A stretch of DNA of 64,000 nt from Amphiscolops sp. MND2022 (Eukaryota). The stretch is from the NCBI GenBank assembly GCA_964187785.1, contig OZ076409.1, forward strand, positions 7,752,001 to 7,816,000. Reading direction: 5' to 3'. Under the pieces are notes generated by a model, which had not been told where the DNA came from, searched no databases, and saw only the letters and a program-made list of their open reading frames with translations. A program made the translations under genes and the position numbers. Positions 1 to 52,512 of this stretch are shown piece after piece; positions within the stretch are counted from its first letter, which is position 1, and every line of letters starts with the position of its first letter.

Positions 1-13
1 TTACTACCCATGT

Positions 14-1471
14 ATGGCCAAATACATAAAGAAATGGGTCAGTAATTGTCAGATTTGTATACAAACAAAACGTATCAACAATGATCTCCTCAGAACCGAA
101 CTACTTAATTGTCCCGAATGGGACCTTGGACCGGAAGACATCTTACAGATGGATATTTTGCCAAACCTCCCCCCAAGCGGAGGCTACGATCACATCATCA
201 CAGCAATAGATGTCTTCTCAAGGTATTTGTTTGCCTATCCTGCGACTCGAATTACCGCAACAGCAGTTTCAAAAGTCATAATGGATATCTTATGCAAACA
301 CACCTACCTTCCAACAACTATAATCACGGATCTAGGCACTCAATTCAACGCACAAGTCACTCATGAAATTGCAGCAGTGCTTGGAATCGAAATGAAACAT
401 GCCACAATGAAACATGCACAAACCATAGGACTCTTAGAAAGAACCCATGCCTCAGTTAAAACACACCTAAAAGCCGCCACAGGCGAATTCAGGAACAACT
501 GGCACAAATATCTTCCTCTAGCAGTCCTTAATCATAACACAACATACCATGCATCACTCGGTTGTGAACCCTCACGAGTTTTCCATGGCCGCATACCACA
601 CAATATCCTTGACTACAAACTTGGATACAATCCAAATCCGAGGTATCAACCACAAACTGACATTGCAGAAGAAATTCAAAAGCGCATGAGAACACTTTTA
701 GACCAAACCAAAAAGAATATCATGCAATCTTACCTTAAATACAAGGCCTACTACGATAGAAAAGCAAAAGCAGCCCCGTTGGAGACAACAGATTACTGCT
801 ATATTCTTAATCCAAAAGCCGATACACAAGCAACGAAAATACCATTCCGAGAATTCAGATAGTGTGGACCTTATAAAGTTGAAAAAGTGCTCCCTAACAA
901 TAACTACATTGTGAGGAGACTTGGCACAAATAAAACTCAACTACTACATCGGATTCGTTTGCGGAAATTCACACCGCAGGCCCCTTTAGCAGACATTTTT
1001 GTTCGCGAAACCGACTGGCAAAAAGATGATCAAATGACTATAGCAAATGATGATCTATATGCCCAATCATGGAACACGAATTTTGGAGCAAATCCGTTTG
1101 ATGACATTCCCTCAGATGCAATACACAATACTGAGGATACCGAATATGTCCCAATGCAAATACCCGACAATAGCCGCCCATCCTCCCCAGTATCTTCAAA
1201 AAATAGTGGGGGGAGCCCAGTGGATCAGACCACTGAACCAGATCAAAATCACGGAAATCATGCTGATGAAAACCCACAACAATCAAATGATGATAATAAT
1301 ACCCAAAAAACCCGAAAAGATGTAAATAACGCAACAGACAATGATAATCAAAAAACCCCAGAAAACTCCCAAAATACCCCATTGCAAGAAGAACCCATAA
1401 ATACCCGTGGTGAAAAATACCACCTATGTCCTAACCCCAACCCAAATTACTCTGACACTTATAGATACTAA
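14..1471 (+). pseudogene. Retrotransposon integrase (C-terminal part of pol) with one in-frame stop
   Basis: CQIC end of the HHCC finger. DDE motifs LQMDIL, ITDLGTQF, GLLERTH. ORFs 14-862 and 887-1471 share a frame and are separated by TAG at 860-862 in EFR*CGPYKV (W to stop just before the GPY motif). Low-complexity acidic/Asn-rich tail. Confidence 0.93.
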
Positions 1472-1689
1472 AAACAACTGACAATCCCTGACTCATCACT
1501 AGTACTCAGAAAACAAATACAGAAGAAACTCTCTTTTTTATCCTTCCTTTTTCAAATCAGCACTACGAGTGCGTTTCTTCATCCTGTTCTCCGATTCCTT
1601 TAACAAATAAATACACAGGATACAGAGTAACTCAACAATCAGAAAACTAAAAGAAGATTATAAATACAACAAGATAATGCAAACAACAG

Positions 1690-4600
1690 TCAGTTTTTCT
1701 TGCTTTTCGGAGCTTTAGCAACCACTCTCTTTGAAGTGCCCTCTTGGGTCGGCTCTGAGCAACGACTAAGACTAACATTAAGTGTACCCAATGAAGGATC
1801 AGGGGACGGGGAACTATGTACACTGCTGCGGCGACTCACACTTGGAGTTGTTGAAGTAGAGGAAACGGTAGGTTTCCCAGCACGTAGCACAGCTTGTCGG
1901 TAACCAGTTTCCAATTTACCTTGGAGAGAAGTTTTCCGGGCATTGCTTCCCTTCAGGAAATTCCAAACCGAGAACTTTTTGTCCAATAACAAATCAGTCC
2001 CACGTCCCAACAGGCGAAAAGCACGGCTGATCGCCTTGGAATTTCGAAATAAGCTGGAGACGTGTGGCACAGTCTGATATGCTACCTGAAGACTAAACAC
2101 ACAAGATTCAAACGTATGTTTATCCGACTCAAGATCTGGCATAGGTACCTTGAATGGTGGCGGTATTTCCACGAATGGAACTAAACAAAGACACGAATGT
2201 TTGAATAGTCGCATCAACTCGGGTCGACACTGGATTTCATAATGTTCAACGACAAACTGAATCCAATCATCATGCTCTGGTACGGGACTTGTCCTCAGCT
2301 TGGTTACGAAGGAACGATACTGGCTTATCTGCTTCACCTTGTCACTAGAAGAGAATAGTCCGGTAGAAACAAAATGTGAAGACAACTTTTCAATCGCATC
2401 AACATACACGTCTTCTGGGCTCTCGAGCATCACCGAGGAATCAAAAGCAGAGAGTCCCCGCAACAACTTTGACTTTACAATCCCGTGACCCACCAACTGT
2501 TTGCAATAAGCCTTGCAGAAACTCACTGACTGGTCAATGAATTTGCTTGGCCGAGGGAGTTTACTTGAATACACCAAACGGTGAAAATCCTCATTCAAGA
2601 CGAAGTCGTCTGCTGTTTTAAACGGCAAATTAGTTGAATCCAGGTCCAAATTAAGATAAGAATCCCATTCCGAGATATTTCCCAAAATGCTGTCAGGAAG
2701 AATGTTCTGCATCTGACTGTAGATAAAAACCGCGAATTGGTTGTATATGCGGAACCCTCCATCAAGTCGTTTCTGTATGTCCGAAAACGCCGAAGTATCT
2801 AAAACACACAAAAATCATCAATTATAGAAATCACGCATGCTTTCATGAAGAAGAGAACTAATCACGCATAGTACACGCTTTTGATAAGCTTGATTAAACA
2901 CATCATATAGCTCAATGTATAAACACCAGGGCTATACGGCTTTACGCGGTTCAGAGAACAATGAATACTCGACACTATGTTGAGTAGGAGATATTGACTA
3001 TGCGGCACTATGCGGAATGTGTAGTAGTGACTCTGCGTCACTATGCTGAACGAGTAGTAGTGATTATACGTCACTATGCGGAATCAGCAATGCAGCTGGA
3101 TTTGGAAGTTCTGAGCAAATACGATTGGTCATACGCAATTATGCGGATTGAGAACTGATGATTACTCGTGATTATTCAGAAGAAAACAAAAAGCACGTGT
3201 CACTTATGATGAGCTAAATGAATGACAATCCTGATGTTCGAAGTTTTGGAATGAGATGGTGCTTATAGTACATTACTCCAAAAAGAGGAAAACAACGTAA
3301 CAAAAGATGAAACCGCTGTTATAATATAAAGATAAATTGACTAACAATGGTCAAGGACACTTCTGATAATGAATAGACGGGCCAGATAAGCTGTGTCTAG
3401 ACGAAAACACTCGTCTAGCGTATTGGGCTGAAAAGGAAAAGATTAAGAAATGGATTCAGATTACAATGGAAGGAGCTGGGATAATAATACCTACCTCTCT
3501 CATATGGAATCGATAGATAGGAAGGCGGGCAACTTGTTCTAGGTGATCCTGCACGTGATTCCAGTTGTTGGAAAGCTGCTCAATCAAAGAAGAAGCTTCA
3601 GAAAGGGAATAGCTCAAGTTTGTCACACACTAAACAAAATAGGGGAAGATGTACAAAACATCACAATGGAAAAGAAAAAAACCAAAGTTGAAAACCTACT
3701 TTGTGCAGAAGGGGTAATTTCTCCAGCCAATCTCTGTCTAGCGCAGTCCGCAATTTCATCAATATATAATCCAAGATAGAACGGAAATCGTGTCGTTCTA
3801 TGACCTGAGCGGTAGGGCCTGCTAATGTTCGCTCAAATTCATTCGGTCCAAATGGGTTGACAGTCGAAGGGGGCTTTAATCCGGGCAAACAAGACGATAG
3901 ACAATCATTTAATTTGTCACTGAATCCAATGAGGGATACACAATTTGGGAATGTTTCGAACAGACTGAGAAAGGAAGCCACAAGAGAAAGGACCTTCCTT
4001 GGTATTAACATTCCCCGAGGGGCGCCCCCTATGCACACTCGATACAGCACATTCTCGGCCCAAAAGCAAAGAATAACGTATGTGGCAACCGGAGTATGTT
4101 GTATGGCCAATGAATAGTACCCCGAAGAAGATATAGATCGTACACAGTAGTCCATGAGTTCTCGGAACATGTAGACTATGATACCCTGCAAACAAAGAAA
4201 GTGTTAAGGTATTGGAAAATGGTGAAACCTTCAACTTATAGTGTAACTTCAAGGTAATTGAAACCTTTAATGAGGGAGAAAGAATATGGTTAAACCATTG
4301 TGTGTTAAAAAAATTCACAAAGAAACTTACGAAAAGACGTTCATTGCTCCAGTTTTGAAACGATAGCCGATCACTTGCTGTAAGTCTGACCAACTCGTCA
4401 TACATTCCGGTCAAACTGGCGACGTTACCTCCGTGCCTTAACCCAAATTCCAGAATGTTTATCTGCGAAAATATCTTCTCAGTTGGGGTTGTGGAAGCAC
4501 TAAAATCGGGTACTGAATCTTGCCCCACTAGAGGTCGGTACGTATCCAATTGAGGAGGAATTGGGTAGGTGTCCTTCGCCTTCTTTTTGGCTTCCTGCAG

Positions 4601-6033
4601 TGAAATTCCAAGCAATTCATGTTCGTCTTTGTCGTAAAGGGGCATTCCTGGAATCTCCATTCGGATTCGGTGTTCCCTTACAAGGTGAGATTCGGACCTG
4701 TAATGGGATATCAGTTCCAGACTCCCACGACTCATTAACGATAATTCAACACGGCACACCCTACACCACCACTTGAAAGGTGATAACTCTTGATCCAGTG
4801 GACCTGTGGCAGAGAATTTCAAAACTGGGTGTCTTTTAAACATACTACCAGTTAAGGAGTATCTAGGGCGGCGTCGTTTCCCCCGTACTTCAGGGAGATT
4901 ATGCTCTGAGTAAGTCGGCGCAGTTCTTGAAGTAGATTGGACAAGTGCTTCTTCTTGGCTTGATGTAGTTAATAAAGCAGATTGCGGTACATCATCTATC
5001 AAAGTAAGTGCCATAGTGTCTCCACATCCAGTCTCTTCTCCGGTGATGAAGGCTTGTGGGATCCTCCCAAGGAAATTGTGGAGAAATAAGACCTCCTGTC
5101 GAGTAACACTAACATTGGGGAACTCTGATCTGGGAATGTTACCCAAGCCTTCTGTGTCCTGACCAGTTGTTTGTCCTTGGTCATTAGCCGTGCTAAGAGA
5201 AACCGTGGTTTCGGGTATCTGCCCGGTGGTGAATCCTGTTGCACCATCCTCACTAGGAGTGACGTACTGTTCAAACTGAAGAGAATGTATCTGAGAATTA
5301 CCCTGCGTGATGAAATCATCAAGTACCCCTTGAGGGAATGTCGTCATTGGCTCATTCATAGCTTTCCGTTGGGGTAACGTTCACAAATGGCGGCGAATTA
5401 CTTCGTGAAGCTAAATCCCATTTTTGACTTGGGTTACCCTGGGAAGTAACTTCAGGAGGCTCTGTGGATGTATGTCCACTCGGTGGCTCACCTGCTACTT
5501 CTTCGCTGATCTGCAAAGTTGGGGTATTGGGGGTATCCACTTCCTCTGTAACCTTAGAAGTCTGTGGAGTCACAACGTTCAAAGATGTGTAGACTTTGGC
5601 AGGAGAGTTGTTTGGAGTGGTTTGGACGTTCTGGGACGATCCTTGTTCAACTGAAACAATTGATCTGTTGATTAACAAAGAACAAATTTCACAAGCAATA
5701 ACCGTTTTTAACTGCCTTGAACCGGACGCGGGGACAGGAAATAAAATTGGAACGGAAGTTGTTTAAAAATTGGAAGCGGAAACGTTTCAAAAATTTGAAC
5801 TTGACAAAGATAATAATCTTGTCATTTTATTTTTGCTAGCCTGGCCAGCTTTGCAAATCAACCAAATTCAAAACAAGTCAAAATGAAACAGAATTAAAAC
5901 GAAATATGTTGAACTTACGGGATGACGTCTCAGGCGGCGGATCACTGTGCCAGAAGTCGTCACGTTGCAAAGGATCATAACTTTTCCGGGATCTTCTTTT
6001 CCCTCCGGGGCTTCCCTCTTGTGGTGAATCCAT
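1690..6033 (-). CDS. Spliced antisense cargo gene; zinc-finger protein resembling an inactive hAT transposase
   Basis: Exons 6033-5919, 5650-4331 (frameshift near 5360), 4185-3700, 3629-3495, 3427-3346, 2798-1690. All five introns are GT..AG with matching phases 1,0,0,0,1. From ATG 5359 the spliced CDS is 2841 nt (946 aa + stop). Zn finger WWCRVC..ELISHYRSESH. Confidence 0.8.
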
Positions 6034-7473
6034 TCTTTTTTACAGAACCAGGGAGTAATTCAGGAAAATTCTGATGCAAGCTCAAAGTATTTGTTCCAGA
6101 AGTGAACGAGGAGAAAATACAATAGATCAGAGTAAGGAAATTGAAAACAGATAAAAGGGGAACTAAAGATGAAGAATCCAAGATTTGGAAGATTGTGTTT
6201 AATATACTAGAACTTTAACTGAACAGACTAAATGAACTGGTAAGAGACTTGAAAATTCAAAAGAAACATTAAAAGGCGTGGCGTAACGTTAATGCAATAG
6301 ACAAAGGCAAAAGAGCAAGTGAAACAATTGTGCGCAAATATGCGTAGAGAATACTGCAATATGATTGGCTGTTCAAATGTCAATTACGTCTGCCAGCGTA
6401 ATTGATTGACTCATCTGACTTCTGCCAACAACGTTGGTATACATGTATGCTGAATGGAATGAATTAGAAAGCGAGAGTATGCGGCAGTATGCGGATCTAC
6501 CACTAACGACTACTCGACAATATGCGTATTGCTGATTTAAATTATGCGGCAGTATGCGGATCTACCAATGATGGATATACGGCAGTATGCGGATCGAGCA
6601 TTGACGTATACTCGACATTCAGCGGTTTTCGCTGTATGCATGACAGAGATGAATTAACACCGTAGATCAACAAGAATGGGCAAATGGAGTGATATTACGT
6701 AATGGAACTGAAGAAACTGTGTGTTTACCACAACTGAAAGTTGAGTGGCAATATTGATATACTGTATACTTGCTTAGTTACCCTTTTTAATGATGTTTAG
6801 CCTGTGATACCAATGCTCATTTGGAACCAATATGTATGTAACAATTTGAACTGTTGGCGCTTTCTAAGACCCATAAATCATTTACCAAGAGATACTGGAA
6901 TTCACCCGGAACATTAATTAACTGCACTTGCATTTTAAATGCAGGACTAACATTACTGGATGTCTCTCCTAATGATAAAATTCAACTCACTAACGGACCT
7001 TAGATTAGATTGGAACATGTTTATTAACATCCTTTTCCTTTTATAAAATAGTCATGTAAAATCAAATAAATTGATTCTGAATTACTTTATTGAATATTTT
7101 CATGAAAGTATTTTGTTTCAGCATCCCTAATATCAAGTCAAATTTGTTTATGTACGATTTAAATACTGGTGAAATGTTAAGAAGGGTGATGATAAAAGGA
7201 AATCAGTTGAAGTGCTAAACTTGTTACCTTTTATGGAAGTTGTTTATGATCGACTGTAAAAGGAACTCATGATATGAGTCTAGGTGGAAACCCTTATAAG
7301 GATGTTTAGGGACCTGAAATCATGACACTCAATTTTTCCGCGGGTTTTCCACTGAAAACGAAAAGTGAGGGAAACTCCATCACCATATGGTCTATATTAA
7401 ACTGTGATTCAGTTGCTTTCAATTTCAAACTCTATTTCTGTTCACCTATAAATTTCCAACTAAAACCTGGAAA

Positions 7474-8446
7474 ATGGACTCACTACAATTCAATCTCGAC
7501 GAGGATCTGGGCTACTCACCCATCTCCCCTGGCGTGATAGACATCTCCAGTGAATCTGGGGAGGAGTTCATTGTTGAACCTGGCAACATTGCCCAGCTGG
7601 ACGAAAGGTTCAGGGTCAATACAATGGGATCAAACATGATGACAGCTTTCGTGGGCTCTGCAACTGCTTCTTTGTTTCCCCCTTCAAATTGCATGGGACA
7701 ACAAGAATCCATCGACACTGCTGGAACCCACATCGAAAGGGAAATCATGGAGTTGATAGAGGAGGGTCCTTCCTCTTCTCCAGCATCTCCGCTGTCTTTC
7801 ATTGATTCAGAGTTCGAAGGACCAGGTATTTCTCCAGTAGCAATTGTCACAGAACCCAGAGTACAGCTTAATAATTATGGTCGGCCAACTGCAGCAATAC
7901 TGCCCACACCAAGGGTCTCATTGCAACCACCAAATGAAACTGTTAGACCAGTGCCGACTTACCTTTCGAATTATGTACAGAATGTCCCTAATTCTCATCA
8001 AGTACAGACAGTAGATACAAATACAGGAGGGGCTACTGACGTACCAACATATGAACTAGAAGACGTTTATCCGCAGGCCGCGTTCATCCCAGAAGAATTA
8101 ACACACCCTGTTGCAAATGACATCACACCAGTAGTGATACATCTGCCCCCTAGAAACATGGGAATTGTCCCCACCAACTTCAATGGTCAATTCCACCAGA
8201 TTGTTCCCAACAGTTATGCCAAACGTCTCCGGATATTGTGACTGGTGTGGCCGTACCTTTGATCAAGTCGCACTGGAAACATTGGGGGACTATCTTGGCG
8301 CTACCGCTTACAACGAGGAAACAGTCAGGGATCGCGGGGTGCGTTCTAGAGCCTTCATAGATGGTTTTGAAGCTGCGTTGTTTATCTTCAAAAATGCAGG
8401 ACTGTCGCGGCCACAGCGTTGCGATGGGTCCGGTGTGCACCAGTAA
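7474..8446 (+). CDS. LTR-internal ORF: acidic/Pro-rich N-terminus and C-terminal CxxC domain; one frameshift near 8207
   Basis: ORFs 7474-8241 and 8165-8446 overlap. Removing one C from ATTGTTCCCAACAGTTATG gives IVP-TVMPNVSGYCDWCGRTF... as one reading frame. Confidence 0.55.
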
Positions 8447-8714
8447 GAAAACAAACAACGCTTGTTAAAAACTTCCAAAACCCAAGGACTCATTTGCAAG
8501 TCATGTAGTTTGTTTGTTTTGTAAATATTTGTCGTAATCAGGGTCATTTAGTTGATTTATTTTGTAAAACTGATGTCTTAAAATGATTTGCCAAACCTTA
8601 AGAGGATTTAATGATGTTTTTAGTTACTCCTGATGATCTTAATGCAGTGCTAGTAGTTCATTTTAATCAAGCAGTACCAATTGTATACGACATTGTGCGT
8701 TTTGAGTGCTAATG

Positions 8715-8945
8715 AGTATGCGGTACTATGCGCATATGCATCTTTCTGACTTTCACTATACGTCACTATGCGGTTTGAGCAGTGACATTTACTCGACACT
8801 ATGCATCTTTCTAACTTTCATTATACGTCACCATGCGGTTTGAGCGGTGACATTTACTCAACACTATGCATTTTTCATTATACGTCATCCTGCGGTTTGA
8901 GGAACAATGAGTACTCGGTACAATACGTTTTTCGCTATGCTTGCT
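8715..8945 (+). repeat. Degenerate tandem array with TATGCGG / CACTATGC core (related arrays at ~2960-3150 and ~6475-6630)
   Basis: Units such as TATACGTCACTATGCGG and ACTCGACACTATGC recur in all three places. Confidence 0.75.
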
Positions 8946-9364
8946 TTAATATGAAGAATTAACTTTGCTTTTCCATATACAGTAGTATAAGTCCATGATA
9001 TATCGTTGTTTAACACCTTTCTAGGGTCTTATAAGCCTCGTTATCATTTCTGAATGTCATGGAAAGTGACTCATGAGATATAAATAGGATGACAGTATTC
9101 TGACGAAGTGCTATTATTAGTTTTCCTAGGAATGATGCTTGTAAAATTGCGTGTCATCTTTTTGTGATTTTGTACTTTCTAGAGGAATAAAGGAGCGAAC
9201 ACAACTGATATAACTTTCTTCAGAACCAGTTTGTTCTCTGATAACTATTGCAACCTTTGTTCTACATTTTGGGATCTTTGAACATTTCAAATTGATTTCC
9301 TTTGACTATTTGTCTTCAATTCAAATTCTTGACCCTGCAAATCGATCGTTTTCACTTGAGAAAG

Positions 9365-9918
9365 ATGGGGAATAAGAGAAACAGGAGATCTAGAAGGCTA
9401 GAAAAACCGTCTCCAGACAGAAACCCAATTGAGGCACAAGTAGATACGTCAGCTCAAGGTAATGAGACTTTGACTAATTTTAACTCAGTTTTACAGGAGA
9501 ATTTAGGTGAAAACGTCTCAGAAAACCCAATGGTTGAACCAAGCCAAATTAGTAATGAAATCCAAGCTTGGACCCAGATTATAGAACAAAAGAATAATGA
9601 TAAAATCGAGAGAATGAGAGAAGAAATAGACAACAAGTTTGAAGCAATTCTGAAAGAAATCAAGTCAAACAAAAGTGCATCGACAGTAACAAACCCAAGA
9701 TCAGAGCTTAATGAAAATCAGGAACCCCAAGCGTCGGGGTCTAAAACTAACAAGTCTATAGGAGTTCACGCATCTATAAACAAAAACCCAGAATCAGAAA
9801 ACGACGATAATCCTCTCAGAGCTTCAAAAAAGAAAGACTTGAAACATCCAGCCAAATCATTGTACCAAAACGAACTGAACTTAGAAGACGGAATAATAGC
9901 TTCAAAAGAGGATTATCA
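9365..9918 (+). CDS. Gag-like N-terminal segment encoded at the 3' end of the LTR (truncated at the LTR boundary)
   Basis: ATG 9365, MGNKRNRRSRR..., coiled-coil-like IERMREEIDNKFEAILKEIK. The frame is open to the LTR end (EDYH) and then runs into unrelated flank. Confidence 0.55.
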
Positions 9919-10199
9919 CATTGTCAGTTTCTGCTTTCCTAAACACCTCCCGAAAACAAAGTTCTCGAAACAAAATGTACAGCACCAATTCTCATTAAAA
10001 CATAGAACAGCCATCATACCCAATATCAAAACATGGGACAGGGGGAAAGTTATAAGTTTCAATTCAGAGTTACCGGAGGAGTATTCTCACAGAGGCATTT
10101 TTTGTTTCATCAAGAGAAATGTTCAGCAAAACGTCACAATTTTGTCGAATTTTGTTACTTACATGGACTCTTCAACTTCATGAATCCGATAGGAATCCT

Positions 10200-15471: not shown

Positions 15472-15946
15472 GGGCCACTGTTTGTCGTCCTCGGCAAACG
15501 GAGAAGGATGCATCATTACTTACAAATGGTTTTAGCAACGTGATTTTCAGTTTTTCTCTTAGATCTTACTGCTTCAAAATTTCGATTTAGCACTTTTCAT
15601 TTTAGCACTTTTTGATTATCCTGGGAGAATAAAAATCAGTTTGTTTAAAAACTCTTACCATTCGTTCCAAGCTAGTTTAAAAGTTCTTTTAAGGGTGGTT
15701 GCACTTTTGAGACACTTTTCGAGCCAGAGAAGCGGAGAAGTTTTTACGAAAACTTTAATTGCACTTGTTTTGGCAGTTAGGCAGGCACCAAGCTGGGACC
15801 TACCCACCGGGTAGTTACATTAGCAAAATAACCAAAATAATGTTAATACTTTGTTAACTAAAATAGCACTTATTGTTTTGATAACTGCTGAGGCATAATA
15901 CGTTCTTGGTTAGTTTTGGTTTGATTAGCCAAGTTCAGTACTTGTT

Positions 15947-18900
15947 TCATTCATCGCCAGTGTCATCCATAGTAGTATCGTCATCTTGTAGCACTTCATT
16001 TAATGATACGGCCAATACTTCCGATGGCGGCAGATCTTGCTGATTTAAGCTTGGTAGTTCATACAATTCTAATTCAATATCGGCTGTTAGTGTTCTCGTC
16101 AACGACGTGGGCGTGACTTCCAAAGCTTCTAGCGGCACTGTCTGATCATTTGAAGTAGCATTGGTGGTGATGACCGTGGTTGAGTTAGCTGTTTCAGAGT
16201 CATGGATGGATACATCGGTGTTGGTTGTTGTTGCAATGCTGATTTGACTTGAGGTTGACATCATGGAAGTTGATGTATTTTCAGCAGTAGAAGCCTCCTC
16301 GTGCCCTGCTGCCTGTCTTATTGAGGTCGAGCCCGCTGGGCTTAGTTCTGGCAGCTGGTCTGCGAGGTCTTGGCGTCCATATCGGAAAAATATTTCTTTG
16401 AAAGTCCCAATTGCATTTAAATAACTGTCATATACGGTATTTCCTTCGTCCCTCTGCTTGGCTATCAAATTCATGAAGATTTCCATGGCCATTTGTGGAT
16501 TGTTCGGTATCTCTTCATTCAGGGGCAAGGTCTTTCTATTGGGTTCTCTTGCGATTTTCGGAACCGTCGCTTTCAGAGTTTGAAACCCTTGGTAGATCAT
16601 TCTGTCCACTATCGGCGGGTCTGTCCAATGCGTAGTGTCGGACAGGATTTTGGCTGTATTGGCTTGCGGTGTCACTCGGGGGTTGTACATTCGGGATACA
16701 TCTTGTATTACTCGATGCTGGAGTCTTTCTGGTGTGGAACCTTTTCTTCGTCCACCCAGGCGTCGTTCCGCATTGGTTAGTACTCGGAGAATACCTGGCT
16801 CATCCCAGCTGGCAAAGCCTTGCAATGCTCCAGTGCTGGGTTCTATAGGAGCGTGCAACCATTCTACTGGATGAAGTTCTAACTACATAGGAACAGCGCA
16901 CCGCGCTCTGGCTCGGATTAGGGCACTGAAATTGTACTCGACCTGTTTCTTGTCTTTAATAATCGTGTATGCCATCGGTGGTCGGAAGTTGGCAAAGGTG
17001 CGCACTAGCATTAGAAAATCCGGTTGTCTGGCGTCGTCTTCAGGGTCCACAAAATGTAGAATAGATAATGTAGGTGCTTTTGCGGCAACTCTAAGCGGCT
17101 GTGTAGGGTATCTCAGGGCCATCATTGAACCAAATATAGGCCAGACTATGGGTGCGATCATGGGGACTAGATCTTCAGTTTCTACCAACATGAGGCTGGC
17201 TACTTGCGAGGGTAATAGGAAACCTGGCAGGTTATTGCTGTTGGGTTTTTGACTTAGCGAGTCGTCTAAAGTGCTCATCACACCAGAGACATTGACCCAG
17301 GCTGAATAAACCCAAACCAATAGTGTTTCGATATTCTCGGCGAGCTGGGCGCGCAACTTCAAAGCGCCTGCAGGGTCCAAAGTGTTTAGAATGGCGTTAA
17401 TCCAATTCCGCTGGTTCTTGGCGAATATGAGAAAACTGAGTAGACAGGAGTTGGCTTTAGCTAGGACTAATCTCTGCACCAGGTGCACTGGGCCTTTGTA
17501 GACGGCGCCTAGACCAACGGCCATCAGGTATGCCAGGATTTCAGCAATTGTGGCCCTCTGCATTGCTTCTACATATAGTCTAACTTGCTGCTCATCTAGG
17601 CTGTTTTCACGCTGTACCATCGTTGGTACCCAAAATGGCGAGATATTATACAAGAATATGGGGAAGGGAATTCCATGGCTTTCTGCTGTTTCATTCAAGG
17701 TCACCTGCAGCGTCTCATGCCAAGATTGGTAAGTATGCTGTGGGTTCATTCGGTTTTCTTGCGCTGTCTTTTGAGCTAATACTGTCAACAATACTAGGGT
17801 GGGGGAAACCATGTTGGGCTTTGCGTCGATCGCTTGTGTTGCCACTGGAAAAACAGTCGCGTCGGTCCGAGTTTGTTTTATTCCTTCTGTCTTCTTGAAG
17901 AGAGCTAGCAGCTCTTTGTGGAATTTAGCGTTGTGTGTCCTCTCGTCTAGCGTGGACTCGTCTCTCATTTCAAACCATCCGTTGTCAATCATGTTTGCCC
18001 GTTCTTTTTCATTAGGTTCCTTAACTCGGCGTACCCCATTCTCATCAAAGGTGCGATGCGCCATTTGCATGCCAAATTCAAAGGCAGTAGCATCATCGGC
18101 CAGTAACTGAGAGTTTCCCTCGTATCCTGTACAAGCCTGCAAGGCTTTCGAGATTTCTGCCAAGAGTGCAGAATAAGAGTTTTCACCCGGACGCCAGGTT
18201 GTGGCACTCACTCTCAGGTTCGGTGCTATTATGTAAAATGACAAATTCTGTGAATATGATGCTTCTGATACTAGATATAACAGTTGCTGGAGTGGTTTAG
18301 GTAAGTATACGTATCCTGGGGGCGACATAAAGACTACCCCTACGACGGGCTTCATTCGCTGCACCCGCCTGATCACATTTCTCATTGCTTCGACGTACGC
18401 AATTACCTCTCCTGTCATCACTTCTTCCGTCAGTCTACGGTTGCCTCCTTCAAAGTATTTTAGCGTTCCTCGAAGAGCCAAGTGGTCGATCATGTTGCTA
18501 TATATTAGGATCGGAGGGAATGGAATTGTCTCTGTGTGGTTGACGGTGGGACCGAAGACCTTGCAGGTCACCTCTGCCATTTCCTCTAGCGATGTGCAGG
18601 GCAAGTTCATCACGCGAACATCCATCAGGGTGTTGTTCATGTTCGCCGTTGCTTTCATCGTGGAGTCCATGAACAAGGCAATCCTTTTCTTTTGCAACAT
18701 CTCTTTGCCCATGGGGAGTAAGGTTGTTATGTCCCTCATGAAATCACGGCTTCTCATCAGTTGGTCATCGTATCTTGCCGGTCGTTGTATGGCTAATTTT
18801 ACTTTGGAGGGGAGTGATCTCACCAATGATGACTTGTCTTTATGAAGATCTTCCCTCACTCTCTCGAACCAGGGAGGAATGCGGTCTAGAAGGAGTGTTG

Positions 18901-20185
18901 GCTTCTTTACGGGCCTCAAGTAATGCACTCCGATCGTTGCTTTTTCGAGGTTTTCCACATCCTCTGGGCTTCCTTTGCTGGTAGCTGTTTCGAATTTCTG
19001 CACACCCAATTCTGAGTCTGGATTCTCTGATTTCGCTTCTCGCTGCAGACGCACCGCGTCTCTGGCAGCAATGTCAAGCTGTCGTGCCTCTGTCTGCGAT
19101 AGGAGCTCCTTAGAGAATCGCACTCGCCTAGGCTCCGGCTGTTGCACTGGGGATGGATTCGGGCTGGAGTTCGTTGCATCCGAATTAGCTAAGTCTCTGG
19201 CCCTTTTCTTTTGAACTAGCTGTTCGATCTTGCTTTGTTCCTTTCGATTCAGTACGTCGCGGAGATCGATAGGTGCCTTGGCTGCTTGCCTTTCTGCTAG
19301 TTCTTGCTGTTTCTGTTGTTCTTGGCGTTCTAGGTCGGCCTGAAAACCTATTAGGTGATGTGGGTCCTGCGACGTTGAAGGTAGCAAGGCATCGTAAGAG
19401 TCTTGAAATCCGATCATATCTGTCATGATGGGCACGTCGAGCGGGTTCCGCATCATTATGGTTCTCGGTCTTTGGCTTGTATTTTGGGTGGCATCTTCAT
19501 CGTTCTGCGCGCACGTGTGCGCTTCTTCTACCCCTTCCCCCCTGAAAGAAGAAGGGAGCATGAGTTTGTTGTTCTCTTCCAGGCGCCTGACACTAATTGG
19601 GGCGGATGATGGTGGGAGCGTCAATATTGGCGGAGGCACTGTTGGCAAAAGGCATGTGAATTGCTGTGTGGGCGATGGTTGCGTTGATTGATAGTCGCGG
19701 GCGCTCTCAGGGGCAGTTGTCGACGATATTGCTGATGCTTGCGTTAGGTTCGTTTGAAGACGTCGTTGCTGCTCCATGGGAGGCCTATTAGGCTCGTCAT
19801 ATCTCAGGTGCGATCTGTGGTCATCAAAATGGTGGGTGAGATCGTGACCTTGCCACGCGCCATTGTGGAATTCCGCAGTTCTGCGGTAAGATCCAATTCC
19901 AATTGATATGGAGAGGGTGAAGTCCGGATGTATTTCGAGAGATTGCATTTGAGCAATTAGTATGGCCATTCCGGTCACCAGTGATGGGGAAGGGTCCTCT
20001 TGTAGGGTCGATTGGACCAGACCAAGCTGGTCAATTCTGGTTTGAGATTCTTCGACAGGCAACGAGGACACGGGAGCTTCTTGCATGGCAATCGTCAGTG
20101 GTTGTGATTGGTCCATTCTGCTGGTGGTCGGTTGCGAGCTTGTTGTTGATGGAGCTGGCATGCGGGTTTTAGCCGATTGATCCAT
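15947..20185 (-). pseudogene. Third ORF of element B (env position), ~1,400 aa, SGNH-hydrolase-like central domain, one in-frame stop
   Basis: ORFs 16883-20236 and 15947-16858 share a frame, split by TAG at 16883-16885. First ATG at 20185. Motifs IALFMDS, ILIYSNMID, VVFMSPP, WRPGENSYSALLAEI. Confidence 0.75.
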
Positions 20186-20487
20186 TAAAGAGATAGGTAG
20201 CGCCTTGGATAAATAACTATGGTGGATATATTGCAAATGTGATGATATATGACTGGCTGCGTCAAGTGCATAGGAATTGACAGGACTGAACTAGAAAGAA
20301 GAAAACAATAGACGTCAATATGAGTTAAAATATTATTGCTGATGAATGCAATTGATATGATAAACATTAAAAGACAAGATAAAACAGATTCGACAATTCA
20401 CGTTAAAAACTAGTTCAGGGATTACTCAAACAACACATATGCTAAGAACAGGACGAGTGGCCTCCCTTTTTTTTGTGCCACAGTGAT

Positions 20488-23400
20488 TCAGTCAAATTTG
20501 TATTTCACATGGTTATGGTGTGTCCTCACTAACGCAATTGATACATACACCCTATCATGGAGGACTATGTCAATATTGGAATCAATGAAATGATCTTTCA
20601 ACATTAAATACCAAGCTGGTAGCAGGTTGATTGATCTCTCAGGGTCATAGATGGGAAAATGGATACGGGTGATCTGTGCTCGTATGAGCTTCTGCACCAG
20701 GTCTATTAGGCACAGATGTAGCACATCATGTAAAATGGGGTGTTTGCTAGAGGCTCTGGTGATTAACAGGAACATTTCGTTATTCCACGGCGTTGCGGGT
20801 GATCTAGTGAGGTGAATACCCTTTCCTACGGCTGGGCGTAGTCGAAAAATTTCTTCCTGGCCATATTCCCTGATGACGTAGCGCGCCATTGCTGAATGTG
20901 ACAAAAGATCTGCCGGACAGCATATTACTACGATACCCATGGCTTGCAAAATGTCAGTTCTTTGTAATAAATCCATGATAGATAGTTCGGTTTGATCTTC
21001 GGATGCGTTATCAATAGTTTTCCCGTGATTGTGCTTTGATTGTCTTGACTTGGTGAGATGATCCAGAATGGCCTTACGGTCTTGCCACACTGTTCTGCGT
21101 AAAGGTCTGTCTCCCAAGTTGGTGCAAGACCAATCGTGAACTACGGAGAGTGCACCCAGCACGGTCACTGAGTTCTCGAATGTATACGTGTGTTTGTCTA
21201 ACAGGCGTATTTTGGCTTGGCGACAGAAGATGATAGCTAGTAGCTGTAACCAATGTTGACTGAGGAATTTCCCACGATAAATATCTGCTAGATGGAAGCA
21301 TAAGGTGTCCTCGAACTCTACAAGCGTACGCAAATTTTCTAAACAAATCAGTAGAGTTCCTGGAGTCACTGGTGATGTCTCGTCCAAAGAGGTGACCAAT
21401 AGCCACCAACCAGCCGTTGGGTGATACACATCTCCAGGAGGGGAGGTTACACCATATTGCTGCCATAGTCTTCGCGCGGTGATACAGCGGACCATTGCTA
21501 TTCGTGTGTCACTTGGTTCTATTTTTCCAAACATCATCGATGGTGGGAGTGGGGGTATGATTGCGGTCAACGTGAATTCTAATCCACTCTTTTCGTGCCA
21601 TGTCCATTCCTTAAATCGGTAGGTGGGGCAGTCTGATGAAGATGTTTCTTGCATGGCTCTTAGTGTGGTTTCCAGGGGTGGGACCACGGTTGGTCCAATG
21701 CTCGAGTAGGTCTTTTCCACGGTAATCACAACGTGATGTACTTGTGGAACCTCTTGGTCCTTAGCTTGTATGTTTCGGATGTATTGCATGTGGTCTTCCG
21801 TTGTTTCAGTAACAGCTGTGTCTGGGGCAGGAGCGTCTACTCCCCGGGCCAATCGCTTGTTCTGTGGTTTTCCACTAATTAGGTTGACGCAACTACAGTT
21901 ACGGGAACCACATGTTCCGCAGCGATATCTGGGAGTTCTATTGCGTCGCAGCAAATAGGGTGGTGCTCGTGAGGTTGTTGTTTGTTCCGCCTCTGGTTGC
22001 TCTGATGATAAACTTTCTGCAATGTTGGGTAGTGTCATTGCACGTTCCAGGGTTTGAGATTGTGCTCTAATTCGCAATCTGCCTCTCGATCTGGCGTACG
22101 GTCGGTGCGTGCTTGCAAGTGCTCTGCTTGATGAGTTGGCACTTCCTCTTCTACGATTTGGAGGTCTGCCTCTTGGTCTGCCTCTTCTACTCACGGTTCT
22201 CCCCGATGATGGCGATGCTTCCATGCTGTGTCTGGGTTCTGGAATTTCTCTGTCGGTTCTTTCTGGGGGTTCGGGTCTCTCGAAAGTTTGTAGTCCTGTC
22301 AAGCTACCAGCTCGAGAGCTGAATAGTGGGAAATTGCTCAATGTGTCGGTTAAAGCTGGGTTCGAGAGCAATGGTGCTGATGTTCCTGATGGCGAGGGTA
22401 TCAGACTTGGTGTTGGTTCTGGCCTGACTTCCTCTTGGTCTGAATACAGTGGTTCCAAATCATCGATATCAGGGTAGGTCATTGGTTGTTGTGGCTCTTC
22501 AATGGGTTCTTGGTCGGATTCCGACTCAGAAGGGTATCCAAATTGACTGAATCGTCTTCGAGGGATTCCTCGTTCTAGAGCAGACTGAGTACGTGTTTGA
22601 ATCGTGCTTGGGGGAACGGGCGCGGTCGGTTCCATCTCGAATGATGCCTCTGGCAGTTGTTCTGGAAGAAATGAGTCACGTGAGATGTCTGACGTTATCT
22701 CCTCATTACTTTCCTCCACGTATGGGTCTGCGATGATGGCAACATTCTGGTCTAACCCAAAGGGTTGATGTGCCGCCCAATCCCACGGCGCAGGCACATG
22801 CTTCTTCAGGCGTTCGGATTGAACCTTTTGTCCTGTATCCAAAACGTATAATCTTCCATCTTGTAATACATCTGTGACCTTGTGAGGTCCACGCCAGGCA
22901 CGAAGGAGTTTGCGGGTGCCACCTTTAGGAATTATGTGGCAGAAAACCCAAACAGCATCACCCACCGCGTGAGCTTTTGCTTTCAAATGCTTGTCGAACT
23001 TCTGTTTTTGTCGTATTTGCGCCTGGTGTGTGTTTCGGCGAACAAGTTCGTGGATTTTTTGTTGTCGAGCAAGTAGGTGCTCCACAAATTCTTCTTTGGA
23101 CTCAAACTCTCGCGCTGCGAATTCTGGGTATAAAAACGAGAGTGGAATGGATTTTTCTGCGCCATGTTGGAGCATATACGGGGAAAATCCGGTGGTTGCA
23201 TGTATGTCTGGTTGAATTATAAGCACCCAAGACTCCGTCTATGTGTTCATCCCAGTCAAGCATTCTTCGAGACGTATAGACTCGGAGCAAGGTCAGTAAT
23301 GTTCGGTTTTGACGTTCCACTAAACCATTACCTCTCGGATGAGTTGGAGTAGACGTTATTTTGGTTACTTGCGAAGCTTTCATCAGTTCTTGAGCAATCT

Positions 23401-26400
23401 CAGCAGTAAAGTTGGTGGCATTGTCCGATTGCATCCTGGCAGGTGTGCCGTGTCTTGCAAACCATTTGTTCAGAATAATCTTTGCAGTCGTCTGGGCGTC
23501 ATATTCGTCGTGTGCACATGGGATTGCCTCTGCAATATTAGTGAAATAGTCGATGATGACTAGCAATCCATTATTTCCTGATGTTGTTTTGCACAACTTC
23601 AAATGGTCGAACTGCACCAGGTCAATAAAATTGCTGCTGTTGATACTTTGTAACGGATAACAGGGATTCCCAGCGGGATGTTTCGTCTGTTGGCATGTTA
23701 GGCAGTGCTTAATATGATTGACAACATCACGCTTGATGCCTGGCCAAGTGTGGCGCTCCTGGATTCTTGTTAACACTTTACCAACTCCTTGGTGTCCTGA
23801 TTCGTCATGCGCTCTGTACAGGATTTCGTGTTGGTATAGCTGGGGCATGACGATCATACACGGTCGTATGTGCATCGCGCGTTGCTGCGGAATGTAGTTG
23901 ACACACAAGATATCGTTCTGATTCAGGAACAGTAAGTCTTTCTTCTGGTGAAAGTACCGTTTGGCAAAGTCCTGCACGTCTTCGGGAAACAACGTATCTT
24001 CTAATGGCTCGTTCTTCATGAGTTTCTTCAGCGCTAGCAGATGTACATCTCTGTGTACATCTCTGTTTTGAGCTAGATGAAGATCTTTCAATCCGCGCAT
24101 TGTTGACTGATGCTCGTGAAGCTCAGTCCCGACTAGCCGGAGGACGTCAGCTTGTTCCTGACACGGCGTAGGCAATCTATGCAGTGCTGGGTCACGTTGG
24201 ATGGTGTCCAGACGTGCCGCCGGTACTTTGGTTGTTATGCTAAGGATACAATTCGGTCTGTCGTCTTCGGTCGAAGTCGGAGTTGTTTCCCATTGCACCT
24301 GTGGGTACCATGGTAAGGAACTCAGGGACGGGTCTGCGGTTAGGTCTTTTTTTGGTAGCCTTTTCAAAATGTACAGCACTGGAAGTTGTGCTCGAGCTTC
24401 CGGTGGAAGCTCTGGATGGTTTGGGATAAATTTTCCATGTTTGTCGATATAGGGCACAGTGGGGAGTTCTTCGTAGTCTTTCTAGGACATGAAGCTGAAT
24501 CCCTTGCTCACTTCTGGTAGAGTTTCCACAATCTTCTCCCGATGTACGTAGTCATTGGTCCTTTTGCTAAGACCATCCACATTTCTATGTTGTGTGCGCG
24601 GTCTGTGGATCGTCTTGAAATGATATTGGTCAAGGCGCGCAATCCAGCGTCCAATCATGGCTTGATCCATTGAATATGTCTTCAGCCACGAGAGAGCCTG
24701 GTTATCCACGCGCAGCGTGAATTCTCGACCTGCAAGGTAGGAATGAAACTTCTCGATGAAATAGAATACTGCATACATTTCCAGCTTCGGGGCGCCATAT
24801 TTCATTTGTGTTTTAGTCAGTGACTTGCTGCCATAAACAATAGGACGAAGAATGGTTTTCCCATTGTATTGTTGCTCTTGGTGCAGTATGCCGGCTATAG
24901 CAACTGCACTGGCATCCGTGTCTAGAACGAAACGTCCTTCTTCGTTAGGCGCTGCCAAAGCTGTGGCATCGACCAATGCTTGCTTTACTGCATCGAACGC
25001 TTCTTGGTGTCTTTCTTTCCAGTAGAAGTGTTGGTTCTTCTTTAACAACTCCTGCATAGGTTGCACCTTAGCAGCATGGAAAGGAATGAAATCTCGGTAG
25101 TAGTTCGCAAATCCAAGGAAGCTCTGTAATTCTTCTCTGTTTCTGGGGCATCCATTCTTGGATTTTGCTGACAGCAGCCGGGTCAGGCTTTATGCCTTCG
25201 GCCGAAACTACTCTTCCAAGGTACTTGGTTTCAGTGCGCATGAAGTCACATTTCTCTGCTCGCATCTTGAAACCTGCCTCTCTGAGACACTCGAACACTT
25301 CTCTAATTCTTTCCAAGTGGTCTTCAATGGTTTCTGTCGCAATCACTATGTCATCTATGTATGCCATGACAACGCTTACATGTCGTTGTTGGATCTTCTG
25401 TAGAGCTCTCGTGATCGATCGCTGAAAGGTGGCCGATGCATTGCATAGCCCGAAGGGCATGCGCCGCCATTCGAACAGGCCAAGTTCACACGCGAACACC
25501 GTTTTTCTGCGATCACGCTTCTTTAGTGGAATTTGCCAAAAGGCCCACGCCAAATCGATGCTCGTGAAGATCTTTGCATTCCCAATCCTCGAGAGGCTTT
25601 CATCGATTCTGGGTAGTGGAAATGCGTCCTTCACTGTTACATCATTTAGCGGGCGGAAGTTACAGCAAAAGCGAAGCTCGCCTGATTTCTTTTTCACCAT
25701 GACTATGCCACTGGCCCACGGAGAGTAGGAGGGTTGTATCAGACCAAGGGCCAGCAAATTCTGCACTTCCTGATTAGCTTTCGCCGCCTTATTAGGGGAC
25801 ATTCGCCTAGCTCCTTCTCGGTGTGGTATAGCCTCCGGCTCTAGCTCTATCTTGTGCTTTGCAATCTTACACCTACCTATGTCAGACTTATTTTTCATGA
25901 ATAGGTCTTCGTACTCATTTAATATAGTTTCTAACTTGTTTCTCGCCTCTTCCCCCCATGAAGAAAGGACGGAAGAGAGGTCGGGGCCTGGGATTGCTTT
26001 TAACAGCTGTGGATCTGTCCTTTTGCGCTTTTCATTATCTGATAAACCTGCCTCAGACGGTTCGGTCGACGATAAAAAATTTCGGGCAAAAGAACTGATT
26101 TCTGAACTGGTGTCCATATCAAAGTTTCTATGTATTTGATTTACATACTCGGCAGAAAGCTTCGAAGCTTCACCTTCAGTTTGCATAAGAACAGAGTTCA
26201 ATACAAAAGTGGTAAGCGCCGCTTTGCCAATTACAGTTTGTGCTTTGATTTTCACCCGTTCTTTATCAGTTTGGTTTCGGATGGCTAAAAATACTATACC
26301 TCCTTCTCCCACAGAAGTTAGTGTATCTTCTGAAACAAAGACTGAAGTGGACTTTATGCTACATGAGTGGACCGTTACATTTCGAAACAGGAAAGTGTCT

Positions 26401-29400: not shown

Positions 29401-30092
29401 ATCGTCGAATTTGGGGATGCTGCACTGCCGGCATCGGAATGTTGGAGCGTTGCCGTGCGTTCCAGTCGTAAGGTGCTGGGACCCAGCAATGGTGGTGTAG
29501 TGGAGGCATAGTTCTGGAGAGTCACTCCTTTTCTGGTCTTCCGCTTTCCCGGCTGACTTTCCGAAGGAGCAATCGCAGTGTCACCCAGTGTATTTCTACT
29601 ACTATCAAGCACTGGTACTCCGGAACCCAGCGGGTCCGCATTCGTGCCCAGGTGAGGGGTGATTTCTCCCAAAGTCATGCCTACATTCATATTCTCAACC
29701 CACTTACTGATATCCGAGCTAGTAGCTACTTCTCTGTTCGAGATCAGCCAGTTCCCGGTAACAATCACGGAAGTGTTCAGAGGAGGCCATACGTTGGTAT
29801 GGTTCATGGGAGTCGCATTAGCTAATTCGGTGCTATCAAAGGACATCTTTGAGGAATTTGCTTGGCTCGTACGCGCAATTTGCGAATTCTGCTCAATGTT
29901 AGACACGTTATCTGACATTACGTCGTCTAAAAACAGGTCGGCGATTATATCTAGCGGTGCTATTTCAGCTTGTGTACTCAGGGTATGCAACTCTTCTATG
30001 TTGTTCGCGAACGGGTTGGTAGCATGAAATTCACTAGACTCCAATGATGTCTCACTCGCGAATAACAAATATTCCCACTCACTCAAACTCAT
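20488..30092 (-). pseudogene. gag-pol polyprotein of element B (~3,200 aa when repaired)
   Basis: CCHC knuckles CFNCGDPSHFAADC and CVNCGHVGHVASDC. Protease IDTGS. RT MPFGL..YIDD. RNase H LDTDAS..VDNQAL. Integrase HDESGH..CLTC, QFDH/QSDNA/VERQN, WRGPH. Lesions: stops at 29337-9, 29331-3, 26742-4 and 24482-4; frameshifts near 25145 and 23205. Confidence 0.95.
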
Positions 30093-52312: not shown

Positions 52313-52512
52313 NNNNNNNNNNNNNNNNNNNNNNNNNNNNNNNNNNNNNNNNNNNNNNNNNNNNNNNNNNNNNNNNNNNNNNNNNNNNNNNNNNNNNNNN
52401 NNNNNNNNNNNNNNNNNNNNNNNNNNNNNNNNNNNNNNNNNNNNNNNNNNNNNNNNNNNNNNNNNNNNNNNNNNNNNNNNNNNNNNNNNNNNNNNNNNNN
52501 NNNNNNNNNNNN
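52313..52512. other. Assembly gap (200 N)
   Basis: Run of N. Confidence 1.

Follow-up and report, generated by a model that had tools for sequence, protein, structure and literature searches.

How can an element that multiplies by way of RNA carry a gene with introns? The question is raised by a 64,000-nucleotide stretch of the genome of Amphiscolops sp. MND2022 (C1:7752001-7816000 of the 1.07-Gb assembly GCA_964187785.1, contig OZ076409.1), referred to here as the window. An earlier note on its first part, made from the letters alone, had proposed that a long terminal repeat (LTR) retrotransposon in this stretch carries a spliced accessory gene with five introns, antisense to the genes of the element itself. 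The window was analysed with 10 kb of upstream sequence added for reconstruction of the element, together with copies of the element elsewhere in the genome. Comparison of these copies establishes the antisense gene as an integral, long-inherited part of the whole element lineage, and the protein that it encodes shows the marks of strong purifying selection. All positions below are those of the window, of which the first letter is position 1, and negative numbers lie upstream of it.

Structure of the antisense gene

The gene model was rebuilt from the raw sequence of the minus strand of the window copy. The gene extends from an ATG at 6033-6031 to a stop codon at 1690-1692 and consists of six exons and five GT-AG introns; its open reading frame (ORF), when intact, has 3246 nt and encodes 1081 amino acids (aa). 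All five introns that the earlier note had drawn were recovered at their proposed coordinates, with lengths of 268, 145, 70, 67 and 547 nt, GT..AG ends and pyrimidine-rich acceptors, and their phases of 1, 0, 0, 0 and 1 were likewise borne out. The donors of introns 1-5 read GTAAGT, GTAAGT, GTAGGT, GTAGGT and GTTAGT. Two small exons that had been claimed to stay open, 3629-3495 (135 nt) and 3427-3346 (82 nt), do so. The parts of the gene are given below in the order of the coding strand, with values for the diverged and further copies that are described in the next section.

5919..6033, minus strand: exon 1, 115 nt, with the start codon at 6033-6031; the ATG is aligned in eight of nine diverged copies (ACG in C1871)
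5651..5918, minus strand: intron 1, phase 1, 268 nt; GTAAGT donor; 268-285 nt among copies
4331..5650, minus strand: exon 2; N-terminal part, basic stretch, zinc finger and the helices before the RNase H-like core
4186..4330, minus strand: intron 2, phase 0; GTAAGT..TTGCAG; 80-148 nt among copies
3700..4185, minus strand: exon 3, 162 aa; RNase H-like core, from the predicted fold and an alignment of 43 relatives
3630..3699, minus strand: intron 3, phase 0; GTAGGT..GTTTAG; 59-75 nt among copies
3495..3629, minus strand: exon 4, 135 nt; the same length in seven of nine diverged copies (133 nt in C2b, 111 nt in C9a) and in all four further copies
3428..3494, minus strand: intron 4, phase 0; GTAGGT..TTTCAG; 66-82 nt among copies
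3346..3427, minus strand: exon 5, 82 nt; the same length in eight of nine diverged copies (C9a projects to 84 nt) and in all four further copies
2799..3345, minus strand: intron 5, phase 1; GTTAGT..TTTTAG; 547-755 nt among subfamilies
1690..2798, minus strand: exon 6, last 368 aa and the stop; all-helical domain, then a Ser/Thr-rich basic tail

In the window copy a single frame is open from 5380 to the stop at 1690-1692, across introns 2-5. A different frame holds exon 1 and the beginning of exon 2, and the frame break that had been suspected near 5360 is thus real, a frameshift within exon 2 near 5360-5370. Exon 1 has a motif, GGKRRS..YDPL..DDFW, common to the subfamilies and is 115 nt long in eight of the nine diverged copies (109 nt in C9a). 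The N-terminal part encoded by exon 2 is fast-evolving and probably disordered; the same exon contains a basic GKRRRPRY stretch (4882-4859) and a C-x2-C-x16-H-x5-H zinc finger (about 4774-4670). Exon 3 contains strand 1 of the predicted core, with a Gln (about 4119-4096), strand 4 and an acidic residue (about 3942-3916), and invariant ERHD / KLRTALD helices that start near 3801. Exon 5, small as it is, was matched by tblastn at 88-100% identity in the four further copies.

Conservation among copies in the genome

The 4344-bp stretch that holds the gene has 17 full-length matches in the genome at 95-100% identity, the window included. Nine siblings are 98.5-99.6% identical to the window copy over 7.3 kb (window 189-7533, with the integrase flank), and the break near 5360, which the earlier note had suggested following up in other copies, is absent from all nine and therefore private to the window copy. 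When the introns are removed from these ten young copies, six have an uninterrupted 3246-nt, 1081-aa ORF from the ATG at 6033; two of the other four are frameshifted (the window copy and L009) and two have one premature stop each. All 50 intron ends among the ten are GT/AG. Only 2 indel columns were found in 3247 exon bases, compared with 18 in 1097 intron bases (about nine events).

Thirteen diverged elements, with pol 75-96% alike, were also examined. Nine of these, first found as exon-by-exon matches at 67-78% identity, were studied within 20 kb fetched around each, and four further copies (L030-L033) were picked from the low-identity end of the exon-6 protein search. The nine are all collinear with the reference, in the order LTR, gag-pol (75-82%), antisense gene, downstream region and LTR; in all four further copies a plus-strand integrase is accompanied by exons 6 to 2 on the opposite strand. 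Every copy examined, the ten young ones and the thirteen diverged elements alike, contains the gene together with its splice sites; such constant presence in sibling elements had been put forward as a check. Splice-site dinucleotides are kept at 85 of 90 places in the nine, with the five departures in five different copies, and all 16 introns examined in L030-L033 are GT..AG (lengths 80-145, 59-73, 67-82 and 547-755 nt).

Exons and introns behave differently in these elements. In most of the nine, the lengths of exons 1, 3, 4 and 5 are 115, 486, 135 and 82 nt, exceptions being found only in the degraded copies C9a, C12a, C8a and C2b, and exons 2 and 6 differ by multiples of three only, among copies with an intact spliced ORF. 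The introns vary over the ranges listed above, from 59-75 nt for intron 3 to 547-755 nt for intron 5. Identity across the nine diverged copies is 60-79% in exons versus 34-64% in introns 2-5. The spliced ORF is intact in two of them (C8b and C3a, both 1079 aa), and a third has a late frameshift only. The stable inheritance that the earlier note had suggested is consistent with introns at the same places and exon lengths fixed across subfamilies. A protein search of the genome with exon 6 gave 6732 first-look candidates, and among 111 scored at 62-100% identity 95 have no stop; the genome holds thousands of candidate copies of the antisense gene.

Relatives were also sought in other assemblies by exhaustive and word-based protein searches, which gave matches nearly all from ENA assemblies and a few from MGnify and JGI. 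Exon 6 has 208 representative clusters of such relatives, the finger part of exon 2 has 114 proteins and exon 3 has 95, all unnamed and exon-sized. No protein longer than 644 aa and no full-length annotated relative was among the matches to exon 6, and a cluster look-up of 10 representatives returned only unnamed ENA, MGnify and JGI fragments. The database ORFs start after ..Q (CAG) and stop before V (GT) at the junctions of the window copy. Some of them read through intron 2, 3 or 4, and in these the insert is unconserved and both flanks are conserved: in P0190 and P0258 the insert at the exact place of intron 2 begins with V (GT) and ends with Q (CAG), and in relatives that read through intron 4, exon 4 ends ..MRE and is followed by V (GT). 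Since the ORFs of the relatives break at the same junctions, the intron positions are common well beyond this element family. Metagenome contigs scanned with alignment A4 and P0002 gave no confirmed relative.

Selection on the encoded protein

Proportions of nonsynonymous (pN) and synonymous (pS) differences were calculated by the Nei-Gojobori method for three mutually diverged intact genes with 65-71% protein identity. Between L002 and C8b, pN and pS are 0.072 and 0.848 in the zinc-finger region, 0.104 and 0.747 in the middle region, and 0.125 and 0.681 in the exon-6 fold. Over all pairs the folded parts have pN of 0.07-0.15 against pS of 0.7-0.9; pS is saturated, and pN/pS is stated only as about 0.1 or less in these parts. 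The N-terminal third is much freer, with pN of 0.31-0.36. In gag and pol of the same copies pN is 0.03-0.09 and pS 0.6-0.85.

A ratio of nonsynonymous to synonymous rates (dN/dS) below 1 in the exons had been named beforehand as a test of constraint, and pN does lie far under pS in the exons that encode the folded parts. As measured by these comparisons, purifying selection acts on the antisense protein with about the strength that it has on pol. Retrotransposon lineages retain only what propagation needs. Purifying selection is the strongest argument in this study that the protein is made and used, and an accessory protein constrained about like pol would be one that the element needs. As a separate observation, gag of the window copy compared with that of C3a has a pS of 0.34, while the pS of pol is 0.72.

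The host element

Self-BLAST of the window and its 10-kb upstream extension revealed an LTR pair of 1448 bp, 98.55% identical, at -6078..-4631 and 8402..9849. The whole element is about 15.9 kb long, with about 6.9 kb between pol and the 3' LTR, and is organized in the order 5' LTR, gag, pol, antisense six-exon gene, a sense ORF (ORF3) and 3' LTR. Upstream of the window, Pfam recognized zf-CCHC in gag, and gag-asp_proteas, RVT_1 and RT_RNaseH in one pol ORF, which continues into the window with Integrase_H2C2, then rve (1.6e-10) and Integrase_p58_C (1.2e-4). With pol in the order protease, reverse transcriptase (RT), RNase H and integrase, and with long LTRs, this is a Ty3/gypsy-type (Metaviridae-like) LTR retrotransposon. 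The sense-strand features within the window are the following.

2..1471, plus strand: 3' end of pol, integrase (H2C2 finger, rve core, p58-type C-terminal domain), by Pfam
7474..8241, plus strand: ORF3, between the antisense gene and the 3' LTR, by tblastn matches in diverged elements
8402..9849, plus strand: 3' LTR, 1448 bp, by self-BLAST; copies of a 17-nt motif at 8717-8733 and 8757-8773

The earlier note had placed the integrase stop at 1471, correctly, and the integrase of the window copy is interrupted upstream of it by an in-frame stop at 860-862. The polypurine tract and LTR that it put at 7179/7190 were misplaced by about 1.2 kb, given the 3' LTR at 8402..9849. The LTR starts at or next to TGTCGCGG, with a purine-rich AAAAATGCAGGA before it.

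ORF3 was matched by tblastn at 42-57% amino-acid identity in eight of the nine diverged elements (C8a being without a match) and is intact, at 342-362 aa, in C8b, C3a and C1871; no Pfam family matched it. ORF3 and the antisense gene point apart across a conserved region at 6300-6700, where a bidirectional internal promoter is possible. Rfam gave no match at E <=0.1 in window positions 1-10000.

The orientation of the gene bears directly on the question raised at the outset. In the genomic RNA of the element, to which they are antisense, the introns read CT..AC and are invisible to the spliceosome; reverse transcription therefore copies them faithfully, and a host-like exon-intron structure is kept from copy to copy. 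That the introns outlast retrotransposition is thus as expected. The earlier note had argued in the same way; the argument is sound, and introns at the same places across subfamilies fit it.

Nature of the protein

The predicted model of exon 6 (26 relatives aligned) is all alpha, with a mean predicted local distance difference test (pLDDT) score of 73. A structural scan with this model ranked the hAT transposase Hermes first (8edg_A, Z 5.1, root mean square deviation (rmsd) 6.0, 167 residues, chain 367-593), and this was the only chain of 48,161 with Z >=5. A protein-language-model look-up of exon 6 led to clusters of the hAT dimerisation region, but the features overlapped too little for this to be more than a lead.

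The upstream half of the protein was modelled through the relative P0190 (90 fragments aligned). Its model has a zinc-finger hairpin-helix, helices and then a core, in which residues 525-690 follow the order b1-b2-b3-a-b4-a-b5-a at pLDDT above 90. Hermes was again at the top in Foldseek (4d1q_G, E 8.1e-4, and 8sjd_D, E 9.1e-4, both with probability 1.00); below it stood retroviral integrase cores and Argonaute PIWI domains. By VIA-align, model residues 307-638 matched 23-265 of Hermes 8edg_A (Z 6.8), and 520-640 matched 143-267 of 8sjd_C (Z 6.5, rmsd 3.9, 115 residues). The C-x2-C-x16-H-x5-H finger, of C2H2 type and putatively BED-like, forms a hairpin and a helix in the model and aligns within Hermes 23-265; no Pfam finger family was reached at threshold. 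On these models an RNase H-like core is well supported. A hAT-like architecture is plausible, on matches that are weak, because two independent halves of the protein each find their best match in the corresponding part of Hermes.

On strand 1 the place of the first catalytic Asp, assigned by topology and not by residue-level structural alignment, is occupied by Gln in the window and by Q, M, E, D, H, L or N among 43 relatives, in which the acidic residue after strand 4 is mostly kept. The DDE catalytic triad of the hAT superfamily, of which a third residue was not located, is not conserved in the antisense protein. Because its first position varies, the most probable reading of the product is a DNA-binding protein of transposase origin and not a nuclease.

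Canonical hAT transposons abound in the genome. A search with PF05699 scored 146 matches out of 2215 candidates, and several of the matches have open frames of 600-700 aa; possible donors of a transposase gene are thus plentiful. The window copy is not among the PF05699 matches listed.

Candidate cis elements

An alignment of nine copies points to a conserved region directly upstream of the start codon.

6034..6720, minus strand: conserved region upstream of the start codon, presumed internal promoter

Within it, a strongly conserved block at about 6410-6300 was found in nine copies, with a repeat array whose number varies between subfamilies. The block contains what we presume to be sequences resembling AP-1/CRE, CCAAT and C/EBP sites.

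A 17-nt motif composed of two CCGCATA-like halves occurs seven times in the window, in one orientation, compared with 0.05 expected. Three copies lie upstream of the gene (6478-6494, 6543-6559 and 6576-6592), two in intron 5 (2999-3015 and 3065-3081), inside an island conserved at about 74%, and two in the 3' LTR (8717-8733 and 8757-8773), the same two being present in the 5' LTR (-5763..-5707). In six of six diverged elements the motif is found in the LTR and in the upstream region, where its spacing is 32-33 bp, and in five of the six in intron 5 (C3a lacks it). Tandem Repeats Finder gave only a 10-nt, 1.9-copy row at 6000-8500; the motif array came from alignment and pattern search.

Intron 1 is conserved at 71-79%, above exons 1-2, and contains a palindrome at about 5857-5832 and GC-rich blocks at about 5745-5715. 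These intron 1 blocks are visible in the read-through N-terminus of P0190, whose exon 2 is only 46% identical.

Proposed function and alternative explanations

Taken as a whole, the region is likely to be the accessory region of a Ty3/gypsy-type element with a selected, spliced antisense gene for a transposase-derived DNA-binding regulator. The antisense gene would be transcribed leftwards from the conserved region at about 6300-6700, spliced by the host and translated, and its product, which has a basic nuclear-import-like stretch, would enter the nucleus and bind DNA. The most speculative step is that the 17-nt CCGCATA..CCGCATA motif might be its binding site, at the LTR, upstream of the gene and within intron 5. 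Such binding would couple the LTR promoter to the internal promoter, as transactivators of complex retroviruses do. More specifically, the retrotransposon lineage might have taken over a disarmed hAT-like zinc-finger protein as a trans-acting regulator on CCGCATA..CCGCATA arrays, a proposal that we regard as tentative and, in this particular form, doubtful.

Several observations weigh against this reading. No Pfam family, including zf-BED and Dimer_Tnp_hAT, was found on any exon, on 26 relatives or on P0190 or P0258. Family profiles searched against PDB sequences returned no transposase, giving chance-level rows or none, and comparison by hhalign with a 697-aa canonical hAT transposase from this genome gave probabilities of 0.1% and 0.3%. 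The AlphaFold2 models are of pieces, namely exon 6 alone and the relative P0190, which spans exon 2, the read-through intron and exon 3. The exon-6 model had no Foldseek match in PDB at E <=0.001, and the Z scores of 5.1-6.8 tie with those of generic RNase H-like and actin-like folds, in a range common for helical models. At the level of the gene, we infer transcription and the splicing of five introns from comparative evidence; no canonical AATAAA was seen by eye just past the stop on the minus strand, and the donor of intron 4 in C8b aligns as GG, in a copy whose projected ORF is open. In L030-L033 the protein identity to the window is 87-96% for the integrase, 62-65% for exon 6 and about 44-51% for exon 2; integrase and antisense gene do not diverge in step, which could reflect recombination or module exchange, or faster evolution of the gene. 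Finally, the shared motif arrays are speculative as candidate targets, and a host factor could bind the motif instead.

A different task for a real and selected gene is the alternative that survives best. Its protein could serve the nuclear import or chromatin tethering of the pre-integration complex, the choice of integration site or protection against silencing by the host, which we consider possible, though not probable. The basic stretch and the zinc finger would suit such a task, and the evidence from selection and inheritance is the same for both readings. An interface with host factors would also agree with the fast N-terminal third and with a gene that diverges faster than the integrase. 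Nuclear-import and regulatory roles are both open possibilities in a review of plant antisense ORFs (PMC7264820). Set against this is the 17-nt motif, whose recurrence in three places (LTR, upstream region and intron 5) fits a regulator somewhat better than an import or tethering role.

It is improbable that the protein is still an active transposase through which the element, whole or in part, could also move as DNA. An RNase H-like core, Hermes as best match for both halves and an acidic residue after strand 4 in most relatives are what such an enzyme would have. The first Asp position, with Gln in the window and variable in 43 relatives, speaks against it, as does the position of the gene at the same place in the LTR element in every copy examined. 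Terminal inverted repeats (TIRs) are not evident beyond chance level either: among 87 inverted-repeat pairs around the gene the best is of 17 nt with 2 mismatches and 88% complementarity (1551-1567 / 6525-6541), and about two such pairs were estimated to be expected in 7 kb. The inverted-repeat search found no TIRs or 8-bp target site duplication (TSD) around the antisense gene. The earlier note had stated that an insertion confined to single copies, with its own TIRs and TSD, would speak against an accessory gene; the copies argue against such a one-off insertion, with no convincing inverted repeat on its flanks, the gene at the same place in every copy examined, and a divergence that accompanies that of gag-pol, if not strictly in step.

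It is very improbable that a hAT-type DNA transposon landed here antisense and has since been copied as passive cargo without function. Nested insertions are common, the likeness to hAT is at the level of the fold, and the 146 PF05699 matches indicate how many such transposons are at hand. Decay at dN/dS near 1 would be expected of cargo, while pN of 0.07-0.15 is seen against pS of 0.7-0.9; the ORF is intact in diverged subfamilies as well as in six of ten young copies, no stop interrupts exon 6 in 95 of 111 scored matches, splice sites are kept, and no TIRs or TSD were found. A hAT insertion may still describe the origin of the gene, as distinct from its present state.

Equally slight is the chance that the antisense RNA itself is the functional product, as a source of double-stranded RNA or small RNA, and that the frame is incidental. 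Regulatory antisense transcripts of retroelements have been discussed (PMC7264820). A 5- to 10-fold synonymous excess, fixed exon lengths and indels mostly in introns are not what an incidental frame would show, and both roles could coexist.

A chance alignment of ORFs and GT/AG dinucleotides with no spliced gene behind it, which the earlier note had thought unlikely and for which it may be said that the five junctions are known here from comparison of genomic copies alone, can be practically dismissed, since the same chain is open in copies differing by 25-35% (the spliced frame in the diverged C8b and C3a included), indels are concentrated in introns, intron lengths change where exon lengths do not, and relatives elsewhere break at the same junctions.

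Comparison with known systems

Plants have supplied most of the known antisense accessory ORFs in LTR retrotransposons (PMC7264820, PMC11963269). Plant Ty3/gypsy elements with additional antisense ORFs between pol and the 3' LTR include maize Grande with gene23, rice RIRE2, and Retand elements, those of Silene and others, with TRP28 / PF04195; their origin and function are described as open, their proteins are thought to be nuclear, and an own promoter has been demonstrated for Grande (PMC7264820, PMC11963269). The present gene has the same position and orientation, occurs likewise in most copies of its family and is likewise old in its lineage. A nuclear, DNA-binding and regulatory role is suspected in both cases, and Retand has tandem repeat arrays in the same region. 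With a coding region antisense to gag-pol between pol and the 3' LTR in all ten young copies and all thirteen diverged elements examined, it falls into the class termed aORF-3R (PMC7264820). The plant ORFs differ in being described as single ORFs, with no introns mentioned in the accounts of them in PMC7264820 or PMC11963269, whereas five conserved introns are present here. The present protein has an RNase H-like/hAT-like fold and no TRP28 match, and its element is of a non-plant-looking Ty3/gypsy lineage with a further sense ORF3. What is new relative to the plant antisense ORFs is thus the five conserved introns, a different recognisable fold and a very high copy number.

The nearest viral counterpart is HBZ of human T-cell leukaemia virus type 1 (HTLV-1), a spliced antisense gene of a complex retrovirus, which has one intron, starts in the 3' LTR and encodes a bZIP protein. 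Both are minus-strand protein-coding genes of retroelements. HBZ has its own promoter, is spliced and gives a nuclear regulatory product, and the expression of the gene in the present element is inferred from comparison alone. The latter differs in its six exons, internal promoter region and transposase-like fold. The HTLV antisense promoter and nuclear HBZ are mentioned in both accounts of the plant ORFs (PMC7264820, PMC11963269).

With Hermes (PDB 2bw3 / 4d1q / 8edg) the predicted protein shares the order of a zinc finger, a helical DNA-binding part, an RNase H-like core and a large helical domain, and the collinearity spans Hermes residues 23-265 and 367-593. Host BED-finger genes have been derived from hAT transposases, and short binding motifs in multiple copies are typical of hAT ends. 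Unlike the hAT transposases, the antisense protein shows no sequence-level similarity to them and has an unconserved first catalytic Asp, and its gene lacks TIRs and an 8-bp TSD and is borne by a retrotransposon. The foamy virus protein Tas is a transactivator that acts on the LTR and on an internal promoter. The likeness lies in one motif common to the LTR and an internal promoter-like region of the element; Tas is encoded on the sense strand and has an unrelated fold, and binding is only proposed for the present protein.

The behaviour of the introns has engineered parallels in the antisense-intron cassettes of retrotransposition assays and the reverse-orientation intron cassettes of retroviral vectors. 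There, as here, an antisense intron is not spliced from the genomic RNA and passes through reverse transcription; the present introns differ from these cassettes in being natural, multiple and old. Spliced antisense transcripts have been described for TART of Drosophila (PMC1636488). TART likewise combines antisense transcription with splice sites in a retroelement, and differs in being a non-LTR element. In full-text searches of the literature, with subscription journals and Repbase notes outside the scope, no multi-exon antisense gene or hAT-like protein in an LTR retrotransposon was found.

Other features of the window

A second, different LTR-type retroelement lies on the minus strand at about 15900-30200. 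Its recognized parts are as follows.

26742-29330, minus strand: gag with a zinc knuckle, by Pfam
25068-26741, minus strand: RT
24482-25189, minus strand: RNase H
23102-24481, minus strand: integrase

Beyond the integrase, ORFs at 20488-23238 (916 aa), 16883-20290 (1135 aa) and 15947-16882 (311 aa) follow on the same strand, with no Pfam match; this extra coding capacity amounts to about 7 kb. A run of 200 N, which may be an assembly gap, is present at 52313-52512.

Implications

Over long evolutionary time and in what appear to be thousands of copies, the element demonstrates in nature that introns do not prevent a gene from being carried by a retroelement, provided that the gene is antisense. 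For annotation it should be borne in mind that repeat masking hides such a gene and that homology searches give exon-sized unnamed ORF fragments only. With one defined protein and an obvious candidate DNA motif, the role of antisense accessory genes becomes directly testable.

The transposase-like fold, working for a retrotransposon, probably links the two great classes of mobile elements. If the proposed regulator on CCGCATA..CCGCATA arrays is real, a class I element would have domesticated a class II enzyme and reached independently a functional equivalent of the Tax/Tas-type transactivators. The sense and antisense promoters of the element would then be wired in one circuit.

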